A stretch of DNA of 64,000 bases, taken from positions 381 through 64,380 of IMG/VR virus record IMGVR_UViG_3300045988_148153; one strand, given 5' to 3'. Shown piece by piece: positions 4,978 through 29,691 of this stretch. The position numbers and the translations under genes are program-made. How positions within the stretch are numbered: position 1 is the stretch's first letter; the number at the start of each line of letters is the position of its first letter. This DNA is from a virus. Below the pieces are notes generated by a model. That model was not told the origin of the DNA. It searched no databases and was given only the letters and a program-made list of their open reading frames with translations.

Positions 4978-5596
4978 TCAGAAACAATGGAGCAAGGAAC
5001 AGGCTGATATGTACTGGCGCAACCAACTTGTAATTTCTATGAAATCCATTTCACCGACCTTTACAATTGATGACAGCAACCGCCAACTGTTGAAAGCTCT
5101 TTATCAATGGATATGGGGAATGCCTGGAATACTTGATTTAGATAAGGGACTGTTATTACACGGTTCTATCGGGGTAGGCAAATCCACTTTACTGAAAGGG
5201 TTACAGAATTATGCGGCGAAAATTGCCCGCTATTGTATTGGTGGTGCGGATGCCGGATTGACCTTTCAATTTACCAGCGCTGCCGAGATTGCCTTACAGT
5301 TTGCCGAGAAGGGAATTGCCGGGTTAAACCAATACACAGACAGGTCATGTATGCACAATCTTGCCATTGACGAAGTAGGTAGGGAGCCAATGGATGCCAA
5401 GCACTTCGGTACAGGCATCAATGCCATTCAGACCGTTTTGCAACTGCGCTATGAGCAGAGATATTGTTTCTACACCCACATGACTACCAATCTTGACCCG
5501 AACACGGAGTTTTCCGGGCGGTATGGGGATTATATTGCCGACCGGGTTAAAGAGATGTTCAATGTGGTTAAAATTGAAGGTAAAAGCCGAAGATAG
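4895..5596 (+). CDS. DnaC/IstB-like AAA+ ATPase (helicase loader)
   Basis: Walker A GSIGVGKST and Walker B LAIDEVG. An in-frame ATG at 5009 would remove the 83-nt overlap with the upstream gene. Confidence 0.7.
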   Translation: MERIGNLILNQTKAPPVSNQLSSANKANQKQWSKEQADMYWRNQLVISMKSISPTFTIDDSNRQLLKALYQWIWGMPGILDLDKGLLLHGSIGVGKSTLLKGLQNYAAKIARYCIGGADAGLTFQFTSAAEIALQFAEKGIAGLNQYTDRSCMHNLAIDEVGREPMDAKHFGTGINAIQTVLQLRYEQRYCFYTHMTTNLDPNTEFSGRYGDYIADRVKEMFNVVKIEGKSRR

Positions 5597-5755
5597 ATGG
5601 CAAAGGAAAAAGAACCCCTCTCCCCCGTCCACTGCCACCAATGCTCATACGCCAAAGACTTTATCGGAAACTCATGCCTCTGTAAGGCTAAAGGTCATAG
5701 GGTATGCGCATGTGACAGGTACGGAAGGATATGTGGATGTTATGTTAAAAAATAA
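5597..5755 (+). CDS. Cys-rich small protein (52 aa, zinc-ribbon-like)
   Basis: ATG lies 1 nt after the previous stop. There are 8 Cys arranged CxxC...CxC...CxC...CxC. The ORF is hidden inside the 5' extension of the track ORF 5493..7601. Confidence 0.45.
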   Translation: MAKEKEPLSPVHCHQCSYAKDFIGNSCLCKAKGHRVCACDRYGRICGCYVKK

Positions 5756-5768
5756 TTTATACACGATT

Positions 5769-7601
5769 ATGAAATCACTCAAAGAGATACTTAAAAGTTT
5801 AGAGGGTCTATCCGATATAGAGATATTCGTGATAGACCTTTTTTGTGGCGCAGGAGGTCTGTCTGAAGGTGTGGAAGAAGCTCGTTTGAATGGCAGAAAA
5901 TGTGCTAAAGTGGTATGTTGTGTAAACCACGATAAGAATGCCATCCTTTCACATGATGCCAACATTCCTGATGCACTTCATTTCATTGAGGATATTCGTA
6001 CACTGGCGCTTTCACCGATAAATACTATTGTTGAACGTATCCGTGAATTATATCCTGATTCGATGATAATGCTTCATGCTTCTTTGGAGTGTACCAACTT
6101 CTCGAAAGCTAAAGGTGGTCAACCGAGAGATGCTGATAGCCGGACGCTGGCAGAGCATCTCTTCCGTTATATTGATGTTATAGACCCTGACTACATTCAG
6201 ATTGAAAATGTAGAAGAGTTTATGTCATGGGGAGATATGGATGAGAATGGCAAGCCTATTTCAATGGATAAAGGACGCTTGTATCAGAAGTGGGTGCGCA
6301 ATGTGAAGAAGTACGGTTACAATTTCGAGCACCGCATCTTGAACGCTGCCGACTATGGGGCATACACCACACGAAAGCGATTCTTTGGCATCTTCGCCAA
6401 GAAAGGGTTGCCTATAGTATTCCCCGAACCTACTCACTGTAAAGGTGGTAGAAATGATATGTTCTCCAAAATGGAGAAGTGGAAACCGGTAAAGGAGGTG
6501 CTTGACTTCTCCGATGAGGGGAGCACCATTTTTCGAGAAAAGCCTTTGTCAGAGAAAACCCTTGAACGCATCTATGCAGGATTGATAAAGTTCGTAGCTG
6601 GTGGTAAGGATTCCTTTCTTTCCCGCTACAATACCGTCCGACCGCAAGATACTTGCAAGTCAGTTGATGAGCCATGCGGAGTACTGACTACTGAAAACCG
6701 TTTTGCGAAAGTACAAGTAAGTTTCCTCTCCAAACAATTCAGCGGACACCCCGACAGCAAGAATGTATCGGTGGAAGAGCCGGCAGGTGCCATTACCTGT
6801 AAAGACCACCACGCTTTTGTATCGGCTTACTACGGGAACGGGCATAATCATTCAGTGGAACTTCCTGCACCTACGGTTACGACAAGGGATAGGTTGGCGT
6901 TGATAGATAGTCAATTCATGTGTTCCTACAATTTCAATGATGCAGGAAAGGACATTAACGAGCCATGCCCTACGCTTCTGACGAAAGACAGGCTTTCCCT
7001 TGTATCACCGAGATTCATCGCTAACGAGTATTCGGGTGGTGGGCAGCATACAAGCATTAACGATGTGTGCCCGGCAATCCTTACCAATCCCAAGCAGAAG
7101 TTGATAACGTGCCAGCCGTGGATAATGAACACAGCTTTCTCCAATGTCGGAAGTAGTATAGAAGAACCGTCCCAGACCATTACAGCCAATCGCAAATGGC
7201 ACTACTTGATGAATCCACAGTTTAACAGTGCAGGAGGTTCCGTTGATAATCCCTGCTTCACGCTCATAGCCCGTATGGATAAGATGCCGCCCTACTTGGT
7301 GGCAACAGAGAGCGGACAGGTAGCCATTGAAATCTACGAAACAGACAGCCCCATGATCCGAAAAATAAAGGAGTTCATGGCATTGTATGGCATAGTGGAT
7401 ATTAAGATGCGTATGCTTCGTATTCCCGAACTGAAACGCATCATGGGATTCCCAGAAGATTACGTATTGGTAGGTACACAGGCAGACCAAAAGAAATTCA
7501 TTGGCAATGCCGTAGAGGTGACACAGGCAAGGAAGAATACCGAAGCGCTCTGTGAGAAGTTAAGAGAATTGAGATTGAATAAATTAAATGAGGTAGCATA
7601 A
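5769..7601 (+). CDS. DNA (cytosine-5)-methyltransferase
   Basis: Motif I FVIDLFCGAGGLSEG, motif IV-like HASLECTNFSKA, motif VI IQIENVEEF and motif X FIGNAVEV. I chose the ATG at 5769 because the upstream 276 nt of the track ORF overlap two other genes. Confidence 0.8.
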   Translation: MKSLKEILKSLEGLSDIEIFVIDLFCGAGGLSEGVEEARLNGRKCAKVVCCVNHDKNAILSHDANIPDALHFIEDIRTLALSPINTIVERIRELYPDSMIMLHASLECTNFSKAKGGQPRDADSRTLAEHLFRYIDVIDPDYIQIENVEEFMSWGDMDENGKPISMDKGRLYQKWVRNVKKYGYNFEHRILNAADYGAYTTRKRFFGIFAKKGLPIVFPEPTHCKGGRNDMFSKMEKWKPVKEVLDFSDEGSTIFREKPLSEKTLERIYAGLIKFVAGGKDSFLSRYNTVRPQDTCKSVDEPCGVLTTENRFAKVQVSFLSKQFSGHPDSKNVSVEEPAGAITCKDHHAFVSAYYGNGHNHSVELPAPTVTTRDRLALIDSQFMCSYNFNDAGKDINEPCPTLLTKDRLSLVSPRFIANEYSGGGQHTSINDVCPAILTNPKQKLITCQPWIMNTAFSNVGSSIEEPSQTITANRKWHYLMNPQFNSAGGSVDNPCFTLIARMDKMPPYLVATESGQVAIEIYETDSPMIRKIKEFMALYGIVDIKMRMLRIPELKRIMGFPEDYVLVGTQADQKKFIGNAVEVTQARKNTEALCEKLRELRLNKLNEVA

Positions 7602-15535: not shown

Positions 15536-16990
15536 TTAGAGTTTCAATACTTGGTTCCTGTTGCCTTCCCTTCGGTGGCTGACGTGTACCCATGAGAAGT
15601 TTTCCTCATCAATGACCTGGTCGAAGGGAAGCTTCAATTCTTGTATAAGATTGAACAGCCTTTTGTTCTCTTTCGGGGTATTCGGAGTACCGACAATATC
15701 AGCAGCACATCCATTGCAATTTCCTTGTATAGAGACCTTCCCGTTTCTCCTTACTATCACGGTTGTGTTTACGTTATTTGCGCACCACACAATACCATCA
15801 TAATCGACCCATTGATAATCTGTTTCTTTCAGTCTTGTTTCGCTACGGTTATCGCAAATACTAAACATGTAAGCCTCCTTGCTCGTTCCGCATTTGCCTT
15901 TTATCACATATTTGCTTTGGGACTTTACACTACACACGCTTCGCATACCGCTTAACACACACATACCATGAATCGTGTCTCTGTTTTTATCCGAAACCGT
16001 AGTTATAGAAAAATTAGCGTTACCCTCTCGTTCATCTCTATGTCCATCAAAAAATGCGTATTCATATAACAGTTCCTTCTGCTGCCATCCTGGCAACAAC
16101 CAAAGCCACCTCGGAAGTATTTTATCCTCACCAACCATTTCAAATATGGGTTTCGAATCGGTTGAGTTAATCCAAAAAGTCAAAGCTCCGTCTTTTCTAA
16201 GCTTTGTCTTTATCGGGATGTTAATCTTATTTAGAAGCTCTGCAACACGTGTGATTTTACGCTCTTTTTTAAGATTAAACCCAATACCATGAAAACGCCT
16301 ATTTCTAATATGTAAAAAACCATCAGACACAATAGCCATCACAAGCCTTAACATATCCATGCTGTCAGCCATGTCAATAACACCCGGTGAATTGGAGGCG
16401 CACATAAACCATCTTCTTTTCCCAAAAATATCTTTGGCAAGTTCTATGTGGTATTTATCGTTGTTTGTTTTTAAAGAATCAAAATAAGCTTGCCCATTTT
16501 GGGTAATGCTTTTTGTATTTTTCTTGATGTATTTATGCGAGTCGTATCTTATAAACATTCTATGTCCATCGGTAACGCAAATATCAGCTATCTGATTATG
16601 TACGCGCATCATTTTCCCTGTATGTCGGTACATAATGAGTTCTGCAATAGGAACTACCTCGACTCTATTTCTATCCATTGAATAAGAAAATATAGTTTCC
16701 CCTTCACTTAACTCATAGTATTTTTTCCATCCATCAGTGGTCAGAAGCTCCGTTTCTTCATCAAAGCAATGGTCGCTTGTTTTAGAGCCGCCTACCGCCT
16801 TATTCAAAGCAGGACAACGGTATCCGCTTGTTACTGTGATAGGCTTGCCGTAAGCCTCTCTTAACGGGTCGAGAACATTGTCAACCAACGCTTGTGCATT
16901 GGGGAGCAGTTCTTTCGGCAGTCTGTTATCTATAGCTTTCTTATCAGCCGTTTCGCTTTTAATCAGTTCTGCAATTGTAAAGTATCTCAT
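15536..16990 (-). CDS. peptidase M15 (L-Ala-D-Glu / D-Ala-D-Ala type) endolysin interrupted by an intein
   Basis: The exteins YFTIAELIKSETA...ITVTSGYRCPALNKAVGGSKTSDH and CNGCAADIVG...FSWVHVSH rebuild the M15 SxHxxGxAAD...WVHVS pattern. Start set at the ATG at 16990, just after the stop of the upstream 2-TM ORF. Confidence 0.85.
   Translation of the reverse strand: MRYFTIAELIKSETADKKAIDNRLPKELLPNAQALVDNVLDPLREAYGKPITVTSGYRCPALNKAVGGSKTSDHCFDEETELLTTDGWKKYYELSEGETIFSYSMDRNRVEVVPIAELIMYRHTGKMMRVHNQIADICVTDGHRMFIRYDSHKYIKKNTKSITQNGQAYFDSLKTNNDKYHIELAKDIFGKRRWFMCASNSPGVIDMADSMDMLRLVMAIVSDGFLHIRNRRFHGIGFNLKKERKITRVAELLNKINIPIKTKLRKDGALTFWINSTDSKPIFEMVGEDKILPRWLWLLPGWQQKELLYEYAFFDGHRDEREGNANFSITTVSDKNRDTIHGMCVLSGMRSVCSVKSQSKYVIKGKCGTSKEAYMFSICDNRSETRLKETDYQWVDYDGIVWCANNVNTTVIVRRNGKVSIQGNCNGCAADIVGTPNTPKENKRLFNLIQELKLPFDQVIDEENFSWVHVSHRREGNRNQVLKL
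15719..16768 (-). mobile_element. intein with LAGLIDADG homing-endonuclease domain (350 aa)
   Basis: It starts with CFDEETELLTTDGW (block A) and contains VTDGHRMF (block B). LAGLIDADG-like motifs are LVMAIVSDGFL and YEYAFFDGHRD. It ends ...VSIQGN and is followed by Cys+1. Codons at both junctions were checked by hand. Confidence 0.85.
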
Positions 16991-16991
16991 A

Positions 16992-17171
16992 TTATTTCTC
17001 CTTTCTAAAGTATTTGTCATAAACCACACGAGCCACCCAGCCGACAACAGCGCCGACACCGAATGACACAACAGTAGTCAAGTTTACCCAAAACGGAGTG
17101 TAGTGCATGTAAAGCATTACTCCCACGATGATAGCGATAACAATCGCTGCGATAATCAATTTCTTTTTCAT
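16992..17171 (-). CDS. 59-aa two-TM peptide of the lysis cassette (holin/antiholin or spanin-like)
   Basis: ATG ORF MKKKLIIAAIVIAIIVGVMLYMHYTPFWVNLTTVVSFGVGAVVGWVARVVYDKYFRKEK, lying between the holin and endolysin genes. It is below the track cutoff. Confidence 0.55.
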   Translation of the reverse strand: MKKKLIIAAIVIAIIVGVMLYMHYTPFWVNLTTVVSFGVGAVVGWVARVVYDKYFRKEK

Positions 17172-17175
17172 TTTG

Positions 17176-17634
17176 TTACTCCTTATCTTTAGTTATTATT
17201 TCACTCACATCTTCTTTCTCAACATCGAGTACTTTTTTACCGAATAGTCCTAATGCTTTTAGTAAGTTGAAATTATATCCTTTGGGCTTTAGAATGTTAC
17301 TTATAATAGAGCAGAACTCTATAAAGCAGACAAACAGGCATGAATACACATCAATATTCCACTTGCTCCCGGAAGCGATGTTTATCATCACCACCATACA
17401 TACAAAAGCGAAGTAAGTCACCATCTTACCCATAGTCCTGCGGATAGCACTGGAAAAGCGCGCTTCTTCGCCCATCAACAGGCTTTTCCTCACTCCAAAT
17501 GCTAAGTCACACACTACGACTGAAAATGTCACTATCAGCCACGGTATCATGTGTTCCAATGACTGCATAATAAAGCTACTCGCTATTACCGAAAATCCCC
17601 CAGGTATGCTTTGGGTAATAATGTTATTCTGCAT
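17176..17634 (-). CDS. holin-family membrane protein
   Basis: It has multiple TM helices. VVVCDLAFGVRKSLLMGEEARFSSAIRRTMGKM resembles the D..tG..kA....S....K pattern of toxin-secretion/phage-lysis holins. It lies upstream of the endolysin. Confidence 0.65.
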   Translation of the reverse strand: MQNNIITQSIPGGFSVIASSFIMQSLEHMIPWLIVTFSVVVCDLAFGVRKSLLMGEEARFSSAIRRTMGKMVTYFAFVCMVVMINIASGSKWNIDVYSCLFVCFIEFCSIISNILKPKGYNFNLLKALGLFGKKVLDVEKEDVSEIITKDKE

Positions 17635-17733: not shown

Positions 17734-18174
17734 TTATATCTTGCCGTAATAGTGGAACCACGCTCCCCACTTCCGCTCTTTCAGATAGTTCGGATTGCCC
17801 TGATTCAGTTTGGCTTCCATCTCAAATGCGCTCGCTCGATAGGCGTTATTGTTTACCTTGCCGCCGCCTATCCGTTCGTCCGTAAACAGATGGTACACGA
17901 AGCTCACAAACCATTCCGCCAAATACAGAATGTAATAGAATAGCGGGATAAGGAGCAACCACCATGCGCTGACATAGAATGACAATAATACGGACGGGAT
18001 AGCCGCTATCTCCATGCACTCGAAGAACTGTTTTTGATGGGTTTTCTCATGGCGAAACACGGTTTCTGATAACACGTTAAATTTGGTTAGGATGAAGCCG
18101 AAGAACATTATCGTGTGATAGCTGCCAAAGAGTATCAATTTGGCTAACTTGCTGTTGTAATAGATTGTTTTCAT
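17734..18174 (-). CDS. membrane protein with zincin-like HExxH...ExEA signature
   Basis: FRHEKTHQKQ, then two TM helices, then SAFEMEAKL. Confidence 0.5.
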   Translation of the reverse strand: MKTIYYNSKLAKLILFGSYHTIMFFGFILTKFNVLSETVFRHEKTHQKQFFECMEIAAIPSVLLSFYVSAWWLLLIPLFYYILYLAEWFVSFVYHLFTDERIGGGKVNNNAYRASAFEMEAKLNQGNPNYLKERKWGAWFHYYGKI

Positions 18175-25929: not shown

Positions 25930-26709
25930 CTATTGATTGATAGAGCTATTCAGAAACTTATTTACGAAGTAGACCTGCCCTTTTCCCGTAAGTTTTGTCG
26001 TAATTGTAGTATGTAATACTCCGCCGCTACCTGAGCGTACGCCTTTCTTTATCTCGAACAATCCCTGTTCTACATATTGTTGATTCGGAATGTTGTATCG
26101 CTCTCCATGCTTACCTAAATACCCGTTTTCACGCATCCATGCAAATAACCTCTTTTCTCCGATAGGGTATCCATTCTGTGTGATAATCTTTGCTAATTCT
26201 CCGATTAAGCAAGAACTATTCGCTGATTGTACGGCATTGGTAAAAGCTATGGCGGGAGTGGCTTCGGCAACTTTCTGTTCTGCTTCAACTCTCTTTTGGC
26301 GTTCCTCTTTCAAATTCTGTAATGCTTGTATAGCGAAATCCGGATTAGCAAGTAGTTGCTCTATGGTAATATCTGTAGCATAGATTCCATACTTGCGTAT
26401 TGAAGGTAACACTTCGCCACATACCCAATCTTGAAATTTTTCAGCGTCGGGAAGATTGCTTCTCATTATTAAACGATATACATCCTTTTCAGGAATATAT
26501 ATCATATTTACTCCACCAATGCCGTTTTCGTGTGGGTGAAACACCTTTTTGCCTGATTTACAATGCCTTTGTATGGCGTCTGCCGTATCAGAATATCCTA
26601 ATGCAGCGGCTACATCTTTTGCACAAAACAAAGGTTCATTGTTTTCGTTCATTATAATTCTTACTTCTCCGAATTGTTCGTTTTTGAAAATCTGAATACT
26701 ATTTTTCAT
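25930..26709 (-). CDS. Bro-N / KilAC-type phage antirepressor
   Basis: The N-terminal IQIFKNEQFGEVRII..NEPLFCAKDVAAALGY is a Bro-N domain. The C-terminal half (IGELAKII...RLFAWMRENGYL) resembles an antirepressor KilAC domain. Confidence 0.75.
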   Translation of the reverse strand: MKNSIQIFKNEQFGEVRIIMNENNEPLFCAKDVAAALGYSDTADAIQRHCKSGKKVFHPHENGIGGVNMIYIPEKDVYRLIMRSNLPDAEKFQDWVCGEVLPSIRKYGIYATDITIEQLLANPDFAIQALQNLKEERQKRVEAEQKVAEATPAIAFTNAVQSANSSCLIGELAKIITQNGYPIGEKRLFAWMRENGYLGKHGERYNIPNQQYVEQGLFEIKKGVRSGSGGVLHTTITTKLTGKGQVYFVNKFLNSSINQ

Positions 26710-28463: not shown

Positions 28464-29312
28464 TTATGCAGCAGGGTCAATTTCACCCTTAATCTGCTTG
28501 ATGGCTCTCCTCGCATTCCACTCGTTTTCGTACAAGGCGATAATGAAGCGTCTGCCCCTTTCAGTCCATACCGTATATACATTGGTTCCTATCGAACCGT
28601 CCGAACGAGTATATGTCTGGGTACGGGTGGAGTGTAATCCCCAAGTAGAGTAGGGAGAGTGGAGTAACCATTGTCCCGATTGGCGATAGATAATTCCTGC
28701 TTCCTTTAGTTTCTTGTGCAGTTTCTCTGCGTCCATTCCTATCTGCTTGGCGATTTGTGTGCTCGTCAGAGTATTTACGCTTTGCAGGTGATTGTTGTAG
28801 TAGGTGACTTTGGGAGCCGCTTCCTTGATTTCCTTGTCTTGCAGTTCGATGGTGGCTTGCTGTTGCTCCGTTTCAGCTTCAAGCTGCTTTAACCGTTCCT
28901 CTCTTTTTGCAAGCGTGGCTTGTGCGATGGTTAGCGCACGTGCCATGATTTCTTCGGGAGTATCGTTTGGGACGGTGGAGATGTAGCCGCCAGTGGTTCG
29001 TACTTCGTGAAGGATTTGTTTAACTCCTTTCTTGAATTGTTTGGCGATTGGCTTGCGGGATTGCATGAGGACTTCGTATAATCCCCCTTCTGTAAGCATC
29101 CAAACTTGCTGATTTCCACCGGGGGTTACGAATTGTGTAACACCTTTCTCGTCATCATCTACTAAAGACAACATGTGAGAAATGTTGTTGTGATTAATAA
29201 CTTCTGCTACATCTTTTGCACGAAACAGAGGTTCCTCAACTGTTCCGTAAACAGTGAATTGCCGTCCACACAATTCTGTTTGTTTTAGGACTTGAATAGG
29301 ATTTGTTAGCAT
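28464..29312 (-). CDS. Bro-N domain antirepressor-like protein
   Basis: FTVYGTVEEPLFRAKDVAEVI...GGLYEVLMQSRKPIAKQFKKGVKQIL is a Bro-N domain, followed by a coiled coil and a C-terminal DNA-binding-like region. Start set at the ATG at 29312 (MLTNPIQ). Confidence 0.7.
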   Translation of the reverse strand: MLTNPIQVLKQTELCGRQFTVYGTVEEPLFRAKDVAEVINHNNISHMLSLVDDDEKGVTQFVTPGGNQQVWMLTEGGLYEVLMQSRKPIAKQFKKGVKQILHEVRTTGGYISTVPNDTPEEIMARALTIAQATLAKREERLKQLEAETEQQQATIELQDKEIKEAAPKVTYYNNHLQSVNTLTSTQIAKQIGMDAEKLHKKLKEAGIIYRQSGQWLLHSPYSTWGLHSTRTQTYTRSDGSIGTNVYTVWTERGRRFIIALYENEWNARRAIKQIKGEIDPAA

Positions 29313-29691
29313 AACAAAAAAAATGCACCTACTACGAGCTGCTAACAAATCCATAAGATTAATGTCGGAGGCGTTTCCGCTACTCCACTCGGTAGGTGCA
29401 ATATCTTTAAAGTATGATATTACTATAATATGTCTTGGCAAAAAAAATAACTCTATATGGTAGAGCCATAAGAGTTTGCCTCTCTTATGAACTTGTTAGC
29501 ACTGCAAAGATAGATATAATCTTTAAAGATGCAAACTTCTTATAAGAAAATCAACTGTTTATGTGAATTTTCTAAGTTTTTATGCGAATATATAGAAAAT
29601 TTTCTATTTGCCACAAGTTTGATATATTATAAAAGCATAAACATGTTACATAACATACCCAATATAATTACAACAGATGTTAATAAAGACG

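Follow-up and report, generated by a model that had tools for sequence, protein, structure and literature searches.

We analysed a 64,000-nucleotide (nt) stretch of viral DNA (positions 381 to 64,380 of the IMG/VR virus record IMGVR_UViG_3300045988_148153; hereafter the window, numbered from its first letter) and found that its endolysin gene, which codes for an M15-type zinc peptidase, contains an in-frame insert of 350 amino acids (aa). To judge from sequence comparison and a structure model, this insert is very probably a genuine class-1 intein with an active-looking LAGLIDADG homing endonuclease, i.e., a selfish mobile element residing in an endolysin. A first, sequence-only reading of this DNA had proposed a LAGLIDADG-type intein between two zinc ligands of an M15 endolysin, and this core proposal is borne out by empty-site alleles, the splice residues, the fold and the homology to annotated inteins. 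Its coordinates, the 484-aa open reading frame (ORF) and the 350-aa insert at 16768..15719, proved exact when re-read from the sequence, and the extein ends, block A, the TDGH of block B, the two LAGLIDADG-like motifs and the penultimate Gly it had named are all present. The gene has the following parts.

15536..16990, minus strand: endolysin precursor gene of 484 codons plus stop (ATG at 16990, stop codon at 15536-15538), comprising N-extein, intein and C-extein
16997..17002, minus strand: Shine-Dalgarno-like AGGAGA, read from the sequence, 7 nt 5' of the endolysin ATG
16769..16990, minus strand: N-extein, aa 1-74, ending ...GGSKTSDH; covers PF08291 positions 2-69, with His74 at zinc ligand 1
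15719..16768, minus strand: intein of 350 aa (precursor aa 75-424), CFDEETELLT...SIQGN, identified by a clean gap against insert-free alleles, by fold and by homology
16535..16768, minus strand: N-terminal Hint half, intein residues 1-78, with Cys1 of block A and with block B; based on a sub-threshold TIGR01445 match, conservation and the beta-strand content of the AlphaFold2 model
15914..16378, minus strand: LAGLIDADG homing-endonuclease domain, about intein residues 131-285; based on Foldseek and profile matches, with a ratio of nonsynonymous to synonymous substitution rates (dN/dS) of 0.095
16319..16354, minus strand: LAGLIDADG motif 1, MLRLVMAIVSDG, intein residues 139-150, catalytic Asp149, from residue conservation
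16043..16078, minus strand: LAGLIDADG motif 2, KELLYEYAFFDG, intein residues 231-242, catalytic Asp241, from residue conservation
15719..15913, minus strand: C-terminal Hint half, intein residues 286-350, with block F (VW-C329-ANNVNTT) and block G (RRNGKVSIQ-G349-N350), from conservation
15539..15718, minus strand: C-extein, aa 425-484, starting CNGCAADIVG, with Cys+1 (C425), Asp431 as zinc ligand 2 and His469 as putative zinc ligand 3

Block B of the intein reads VTDGH (T66, H69). By calculation, the precursor has a mass of 55.8 kDa, which splicing would divide into the 40.8-kDa intein and a 15.0-kDa ligated product. The G+C content was not informative, since the intein (0.379, compared with 0.455 for the extein) was judged to lie inside the range of neighbouring genes (0.39-0.44).

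The insert is located directly after His74, inside the S-x-H-x-x-G-x-A-x-D motif of the peptidase. Joining the flanks in silico recreates this zinc motif as S72-D-H74-C-N-G-C-A-A-D. The spliced sequence matches Pfam PF08291 (Peptidase_M15_3) over profile positions 2-107 of 108 (E 7.6e-20), whereas the unspliced protein matches positions 2-69 only, in agreement with the earlier statement that the M15 motif is complete solely after removal of the insert. When the joined sequence is compared with 1LBU, the zinc D-Ala-D-Ala carboxypeptidase of Streptomyces albus G (segment SRH154-MYGHAAD161), H74 corresponds to His154 and D431 to Asp161, which we take to be two of the three zinc ligands of that enzyme. 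Consequently, the insert sits between zinc ligands 1 and 2, and in the precursor His74 and Asp431 are kept 350 residues apart by the intein. S72, H74 and H469 (in SWVH) are invariant in the M15 family alignment A4, suggesting His469 as the third zinc ligand of the spliced enzyme. The His...Asp...His ligands in S-x-H-x-x-G-x-A-x-D and H-x-H context are found in the spliced sequence only. The predicted ligated junction peptide is TSDHCNGCAADIVGTPNTPK, and the precursor junction reads ...TSDHCFDEETELLTTDGWK. The precursor also matches the PHROG endolysin family phrog_894 (E 3.4e-30). The spliced product is a putative active peptidoglycan peptidase.

Alignment with intein-less M15 homologues had been proposed in the sequence-only reading as a check. 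The insert-free alleles P0104, P0105 (417 member sequences) and P0106, with 134-135 aa, are 96-99% identical to the joined flanks and align to the precursor with one single clean gap of 350 residues. Judged by this gap, 1050 nt at the DNA level, and by the restoration of PF08291, the sequence pattern is far beyond chance. The contig L001 is syntenic with the window in the order holin, 59-aa gene, 135-aa M15 peptidase, 96-aa gene and 473-aa gene; it shows 82-89% nucleotide identity on both flanks and is shorter by a net 1050 nt, and both junctions are placed to the exact codon. With a slash marking the insertion point, L001 reads ...GACCAC/ATGAAC... and the window ...GACCAT(1050 nt)TGCAAT.... 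The longer form of the empty site is ...AGCGACCAC/ATGAACGGGTGT..., compared with ...AGCGACCAT(1050 nt)TGCAATGGATGT... for the occupied site; the short form of the L001 empty site is ...AAAACGAGCGACCAC/ATGAACGGGTGTGCTGCC.... Mismatches to L001 are scattered, and no clear signal of a co-conversion tract was detected at the insertion site. More generally, the insert-free Peptidase_M15_3 endolysins of Bacteroides phages and prophages (P0105, P0106 and P0137, the last named 'D-Ala-D-Ala carboxypeptidase family metallohydrolase') share 74-99% identity with the spliced extein over their full 132-135 aa, the synteny of the lysis cassette (L001-L003) and the His...Asp...His zinc-ligand pattern; they differ in lacking the 350-aa insert and in having Met, Arg or Ile at the position of the Cys+1 of the window.

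This last difference is systematic. Among 117 close insert-free homologues the residue after the motif His is Met (98), Arg (15) or Ile (4) and never Cys, Ser or Thr, whereas the 89 insert-bearing M15 proteins have Cys (88) or Ser (1) at +1. In the near-identical insert-free alleles the position of the window Cys+1 is a Met. Since a +1 nucleophile is needed only for the ligation of the exteins, its perfect association with the insert is strong evidence for splicing and against a permanent domain. The remaining splice residues were assessed in 103 insert-bearing relatives with 23-87% identity, 89 of them hosted by M15 proteins and 14 by distant hosts. Wherever the junction is covered (102 relatives), the intein has Cys1, and both the terminal Asn (N350) and a C, S or T at +1 are found in 103 of 103. 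The T and H of block B are conserved in 89/89 M15 hosts and 13/14 distant hosts, and W328, C329 and G349 in all 89 M15 hosts.

The structure of the intein was modelled with AlphaFold2 from a 99-sequence alignment (predicted local distance difference test score 95.2, predicted template modelling score 0.91). The top Foldseek matches of this model in the PDB are TliVMA (E 1.4e-17) and PI-SceI (1.8e-15), followed by PhoVMA and PI-PfuI, with E-values up to 4e-11 in this group. The central domain matches I-DmoI (1.5e-5), I-SceI and I-Tsp061I with E-values of about 1e-5, and the splicing domain matches the hedgehog Hint domain 1AT0 (E 6e-5) as well as a bacterial intein-like (BIL) domain. The sequence profile of the family finds PI-PkoII (E 1.7e-9), the AceL NrdHF intein (2.3e-8) and the TliVMA intein. 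The Hint and LAGLIDADG domains, for which a domain search had been suggested beforehand, were thus found by structure and profile matches. A tblastn search of the intein against phage records gave full-length matches of 20-25% identity in mycobacteriophage primases, including an annotated 'intein-containing topoisomerase primase', and further matches in ribonucleotide reductases, DNA polymerases, NAMPT and nucleotidyltransferases. The primase intein of Turj99 (gp53) aligns from Cys1 to the terminal Asn with 25% identity (E 3e-17).

Some observations weigh against an active class-1 intein. With the single sequence the curated intein models stay below threshold (PF14890, 20 bits with a cut-off of 35.8; TIGR01445, 17.8 with a cut-off of 24.5), the match to TIGR01445 (intein_Nterm) covering intein residues 1-72 with an E-value of 5e-3, and phmmer of the insert against PDB sequences gave nothing meaningful. 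As these single-sequence searches are not decisive, the case for an intein rests on the homologue alignment, AlphaFold2 with Foldseek, and the profile searches. In addition, blocks F and G contain no His that could serve as helper residue for Asn cyclisation. The penultimate His and the block-F His or Asp, typical but not obligatory features of class-1 inteins, are both absent; position 4 of block F is an invariant Cys instead of Asp and follows an invariant Trp. Finally, intein residue 267 (15968-15970, minus strand), which lies in helix 260-272 of the second LAGLIDADG subdomain, is His in the window and Gln in 88/89 M15-hosted and 14/14 distant relatives; this exchange may weaken the homing endonuclease in the window lineage.

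The penultimate Gly had been pointed out as an oddity from the beginning. It is real, and it is no obstacle to splicing: all 89 M15-hosted copies and 9 of the 14 distant copies have Gly at this position (Gln or Leu in the rest), and the Gly-ended intein of the mycobacteriophage Bethlehem RDF (metallophosphoesterase) splices to completion, a G-to-H mutation even slowing the reaction (Kelley et al. 2016, PMC5050341). Rather than being defects of this copy, the missing penultimate His, the missing block-F His and the block-F Cys4 are features shared throughout the phage intein clade. A class-3 intein was considered on account of the invariant Trp-Cys in block F. Such inteins have no N-terminal nucleophile and carry a Trp(B12)-Cys(F4)-Thr(G5) triplet; the family at hand retains an invariant Cys1 and, of the triplet, only the F4 Cys, with Met (or V, L, I, F) at B12 and Gln at G5 in 80/89, and this assignment was rejected. 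A group I intron or a free-standing homing-endonuclease gene was rejected as well, the 1050 nt being in frame and free of stop codons and the Hint fold being continuous with the exteins.

The endonuclease appears to be maintained. LAGLIDADG endonucleases of the two-motif type have a pseudo-dimeric alpha-beta-beta-alpha-beta-beta-alpha fold with a catalytic acidic residue at the end of either LAGLIDADG helix, and the window intein agrees with this type in its motifs and in its matches to I-DmoI, I-SceI and PI-PkoII. D149, G150 and G242 are conserved in 89/89 and D241 in 88/89 M15-hosted relatives, and the other conserved endonuclease residues K168, R170, K216, P219 and R276 are intact in the window. 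Pfam LAGLIDADG_3 matches 23 of 64 relatives and not the window copy. No mini-intein was found among the 88 full-length M15-hosted copies, whose inteins comprise 341-359 aa; the shorter P0009 (320 aa) is a 5'-cut fragment. Compared with P0002, the closest insert-bearing relative (locus L010), the window intein shows 85% nucleotide identity, 0.76 synonymous substitutions per site (dS) and a dN/dS of 0.095, the same ratio being obtained for the endonuclease domain alone. The host gene, in contrast, is only 69% identical to that of P0002 with saturated synonymous sites (proportion of synonymous differences 0.83), and lies in a different gene neighbourhood. Insert-free alleles co-circulate with the intein-bearing ones. 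The dS of the intein compared with the saturated extein, the different neighbourhoods, and near-identical insert-free alleles that retain the ancestral Met indicate that the intein would have entered the endolysin lineage of the window recently, by transfer between diverged endolysin genes, which is what homing predicts.

The same insertion site, S-x-H/C-x-G-x-A-x-D, carries an intein in at least 89 clusters (clustered at 90% identity), the exteins of which are only 21-78% identical to those of the window. The family includes a chromosomal prophage copy in Parabacteroides, which is named only 'D-Ala-D-Ala carboxypeptidase family metallohydrolase' at NCBI, and a copy in the cultured Bacteroides fragilis phage BF766P4 (coding sequence BF766P4_00004, 'hypothetical protein'), the spliced form of which matches PF08291 over 1-108 of 108 (E 1.9e-21). 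A further member is gp75 of the crAss-like phage cr53_1 (NC_055889.1; L009, 2737-4242), labelled 'VOG2995; phosphoesterase', a label probably transferred through the intein from metallophosphoesterase hosts. Under genetic code 11 this gene has several in-frame stops in extein and intein, which fits the stop-codon recoding described for crAss-like phages. The spliced forms of the crAss-type exteins P0086 and P0089 match M15_3 weakly (E about 5e-3), and these proteins are called M15 mainly because they share the S-x-H/C-x-G-x-A-x-D and W-x-H-x-D motifs. None of the M15 endolysin family members examined is annotated as containing an intein.

Relatives of the intein are by no means restricted to these enzymes. 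An exhaustive HMMER search brought up 6032 relatives (E <= 1e-3), the hosts of which vary widely in size. A sample of 64 shorter hosts comprised 19 metallophosphoesterases, 11 M15_3 proteins and 2 ThyX, together with single cases of a ribonucleotide reductase small subunit, NrdD, DNA polymerase A, phage integrase, DUF5675 and Amidase_2. The Amidase_2 case, the 489-aa metagenomic protein P0312, has a related 324-aa intein in an N-acetylmuramoyl-L-alanine amidase, which is split as ...DETGCH/CFTESCEI...VFVAGN/CVGQNDKIGICL; after splicing in silico the 165-aa product matches PF01510 (Amidase_2) over 6-130 of 131 (E 1.6e-19). Therefore, lysin inteins are not confined to M15 enzymes. Related inteins were also seen in a DUF5675 protein (P0262, 485 aa; PF18925, E 4e-23) and in a weakly M15_4-like protein (P0276, 459 aa; ...SAHQ/C...TGN/SGKAVDIAP). 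In about 90% or more of the clade the -1 residue is His whatever the host (S-x-H/C in M15, G-H/T-H in metallophosphoesterases, G-C-H/C in the amidase), and in several hosts this His is part of a metal-binding motif; in a few metallophosphoesterases the intein instead follows G-N-H-[DE]. This could reflect a preference of the intein for His or a bias towards metal-site motifs.

The endolysin gene is the third member of a lysis cassette, the order of which is kept in L001-L007. It is preceded by two genes.

17176..17634, minus strand: holin gene, 152 aa, two genes upstream of the endolysin; PF05105 Phage_holin_4_1, E 1.1e-7 (above cut-off), and phrog_199 holin, E 4.8e-6
16992..17171, minus strand: gene for a 59-aa small membrane protein between holin and endolysin; phrog_3045 membrane protein, E 4e-4; also present in the insert-free loci L001-L003

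By eye, no signal or membrane segment is obvious at the N-terminus of the endolysin. A 146-aa ORF located just upstream of the holin gene (17734-18174, minus strand) and kept in the syntenic loci has an HEKTH (HExxH) motif, hydrophobic segments and a match to phrog_15610 'protease' (E 1.4e-9); its product may be a membrane metalloprotease in or beside the cassette. In P0104 (176 aa), from a metagenomic contig, the 59-aa membrane protein continues in frame into an insert-free endolysin with 99% identity to the window exteins; a frameshift or an assembly difference where the two genes meet is the probable cause.

The surrounding genes identify the source as a temperate, siphovirus-like phage. 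Structural genes code for a tail fibre, a tape measure protein, a major head protein, an SPP1-type portal and the large terminase; further genes code for a D5-like primase, a YqaJ exonuclease, two DNA methylases, Bro/ANT antirepressors, an M78 peptidase, Rha and a tyrosine integrase. No tRNA gene was found in the window. The relatives and their human-gut sources point to a host among the Bacteroidales. The identical endolysin protein (P0001) occurs in 68 blocks of the assembly collection, with the same gene order in the four loci shown. A megablast search of the locus against 50,697 phage records gave one short match, in the flank, and the phage itself is absent from that collection. Two separate antirepressor-type genes with Bro-N/ANT (KilAC) domains (25930-26709 and 28464-29441, both minus strand) lie about 2 kb apart. 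The ORF for a C-5 cytosine DNA methylase (5493-7601, plus strand) has 702 aa, about twice the usual length, and its Pfam match falls into two stretches; a hidden Markov model scan found no intein of the endolysin-intein clade in it. In the same scan over all six-frame ORFs of the window no second intein of the clade was found, leaving the endolysin copy alone.

We propose the following course of events. The 55.8-kDa precursor would be translated late, together with the holin, and would be unable to form the His/Asp/His zinc site. In the AlphaFold2 model of the precursor the sole segment of very low confidence comprises residues 69-73, immediately before the junction. It is reasonable to assume that the enzyme would be inactive until splicing. 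Cys1 would attack the His74-Cys1 peptide bond, the thioester would pass to Cys+1 (C425), and cyclisation of Asn350 would release the 40.8-kDa intein. The 15.0-kDa ligated product, with a contiguous zinc site (His74, Asp, His) and a Cys in place of the ancestral Met, would be the active peptidoglycan peptidase and would reach the wall when the holin fires. The freed intein, a site-specific endonuclease in this scheme, would cleave endolysin genes without the insert at ...AGCGACCAC/ATGAACGGG... when these are present in mixed infections or lysogens; by repair the intein would be copied into the cut allele, the Met-to-Cys change travelling along.

We considered whether the insert could be something other than a splicing and homing intein. 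It could be a permanent, non-splicing domain or an autoproteolytic module of the Hint/BIL type, with the full-length or cleaved protein being functional (or dead). The lack of a penultimate His and of a block-F His, the sub-threshold matches to curated intein models and a weak profile match to the bacterial intein-like domain 2LWY (E 3.7e-3) would fit such a module, which we nevertheless regard as extremely unlikely: the insert splits a 10-residue metal-binding motif, a +1 nucleophile accompanies it in 89/89 cases and is found in 0/117 proteins without it, and Cys1 and the terminal Asn are invariant. An embedded homing endonuclease together with empty-site alleles is a hallmark of mobile inteins and not of BIL domains; moreover, relatives from the clade are annotated as inteins and one with a penultimate Gly is reported to splice (PMC5050341). 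Alternatively, the intein might be splicing-competent while its endonuclease is decaying in the window lineage, so that it spreads only with the phage and no longer by homing. His in place of the near-invariant Gln267 (1/89 copies) speaks for this, as does the frequency of the identical protein (68 collection blocks), the four loci shown being all in the same phage context. On the other hand, both catalytic Asp residues as well as K168, R170, K216, P219 and R276 are intact, and the dN/dS of 0.095 for the endonuclease domain against P0002 does not suggest decay, making this version unlikely, if less so than a permanent domain.

A different question is whether the phage has put the intein to use. 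The sequence-only reading had suggested that splicing could act as a post-translational timer of lysis; in this scenario the intein would be co-opted as a regulator, and zinc-, redox- or temperature-conditional splicing would gate the endolysin and set or safeguard the timing of lysis. The junction is unusually rich in potential metal or redox ligands (His-1, Cys1, Cys+1, Cys+4 and the invariant Cys329); the His at -1 doubles as a zinc ligand of the endolysin, and the family persists in at least 89 clusters. Mycobacterial DnaB inteins are reported to splice in a zinc- and oxidant-sensitive manner (PMC7360933, PMC6195587). Against a regulatory role, the intein is dispensable, because nearly identical phages manage with an insert-free endolysin. 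Furthermore, a holin gene belongs to the cassette, and it is the holin that times lysis while the endolysin accumulates beforehand. A selfish element would be expected to keep its endonuclease and to show evidence of horizontal transfer, as this intein does. Given the insert-free sister phages and an otherwise ordinary holin-endolysin cassette, the timer is not supported; we consider a regulatory function improbable, and a purely selfish element explains all data. A long shot of the same kind is that inteins of this clade have colonised lysins repeatedly (M15 and at least one Amidase_2 protein, P0312), together with zinc- or redox-sensitive splicing, which is conceivable because the junction consists of the metal-binding residues of the enzyme plus three or four cysteines, and that it provides a safety catch keeping the endolysin inert until late infection. 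If true, conditional protein splicing would for the first time be found to control host lysis in nature.

Among known systems, the mycobacteriophage class-1 LAGLIDADG inteins of the TOPRIM-primase and RDF/metallophosphoesterase type (PMC5050341; e.g., Turj99 gp53) share with the window intein the Hint, LAGLIDADG, Hint layout and the insertion beside an invariant active-site residue. The Turj99 intein has the same Gly-Asn end of block G (...TGN) and the block-F Cys4 (VYC in Turj99, VWC in the window), and relatives of the window intein are also found in Metallophos and ThyX hosts. However, the hosts of the mycobacteriophage inteins are nucleic-acid enzymes of phages that infect Actinobacteria, the host here is a peptidoglycan peptidase of a lysis cassette from phages of Bacteroidales, and identity is only 20-30%. 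The archaeal and yeast VMA inteins (PI-SceI, TliVMA, PhoVMA) and PI-PfuI/PI-PkoII are the best structural matches (E 1.4e-17 to 5e-10, query-normalised template modelling score 0.54-0.63) and have Cys1, the T..H of block B, the terminal Asn, a +1 Cys and a two-motif LAGLIDADG endonuclease nested in the Hint fold. They differ by their low identity (7-17%) and by their full length of about 430-540 aa compared with 350 aa, the 366-residue construct 7qsu being close. Inteins of this type carry a penultimate His, where the window intein has Gly and no block-F His.

In Hedgehog proteins an N-terminal zinc DD-peptidase-like domain is combined with a C-terminal Hint domain (PMC6027127), which recalls the M15/LAS-type zinc domain with a self-processing Hint domain described here. 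Their Hint domain is C-terminal, however, undergoes cholesterol-dependent cleavage instead of splicing and has no endonuclease; we treat the resemblance as a coincidental co-occurrence of domains. Group I introns interrupt phage lysin genes such as lysK of Staphylococcus phage K and Twort-like phages. These are likewise self-splicing mobile elements with a homing endonuclease in a phage lysin gene, but they are spliced out of the RNA and disrupt the reading frame, whereas the 1050 nt in the window are in frame, stop-free and code for a protein with a Hint fold, so that splicing would take place in the protein.

Inteins are usually described from proteins of replication, repair, recombination and packaging. 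In full-text searches of open-access papers and bioRxiv we found no earlier report of an endolysin intein, although such absence is no proof, and a literature search for BF766P4 returned no reports. Payne and Hatfull found 0 of 224 mycobacteriophage LysA genes interrupted by an intein; Kelley et al. (2016, PMC5050341) list no lysin and describe nucleic-acid binding as common to all phage intein hosts. Nor does a lysin appear among the 19 host proteins of the 784 actinophage inteins covered by a survey from 2025. In papers on crAss-like and jumbo gut phages the sole intein hosts mentioned are TerL, polymerases and nrdD. The early suggestion of a new insertion niche thus holds against the literature searched, including two phage intein surveys without a lysin. 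The kind of intein and the phage clade are known; what is new is the endolysin as host niche, the breadth of its occupation in gut phages and the lack of annotation.

As regards annotation, the members of this family, proteins of about 480 aa, now carry the labels 'hypothetical protein', 'phosphoesterase' or 'D-Ala-D-Ala carboxypeptidase', and pipelines mining for endolysins will therefore mis-size or miss the intein-bearing proteins. For enzyme engineering the family offers a natural example of a predicted intein-caged lytic enzyme. The cultured phage BF766P4 and the near-identical insert-free phages form a tractable natural system for the cost and benefit of an intein and for homing in a gut-phage population. 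For the biology of inteins, a peptidoglycan hydrolase is added to the hosts, and it is no one-off, with at least 89 M15 clusters occupied at one site and a related intein in an Amidase_2 enzyme.

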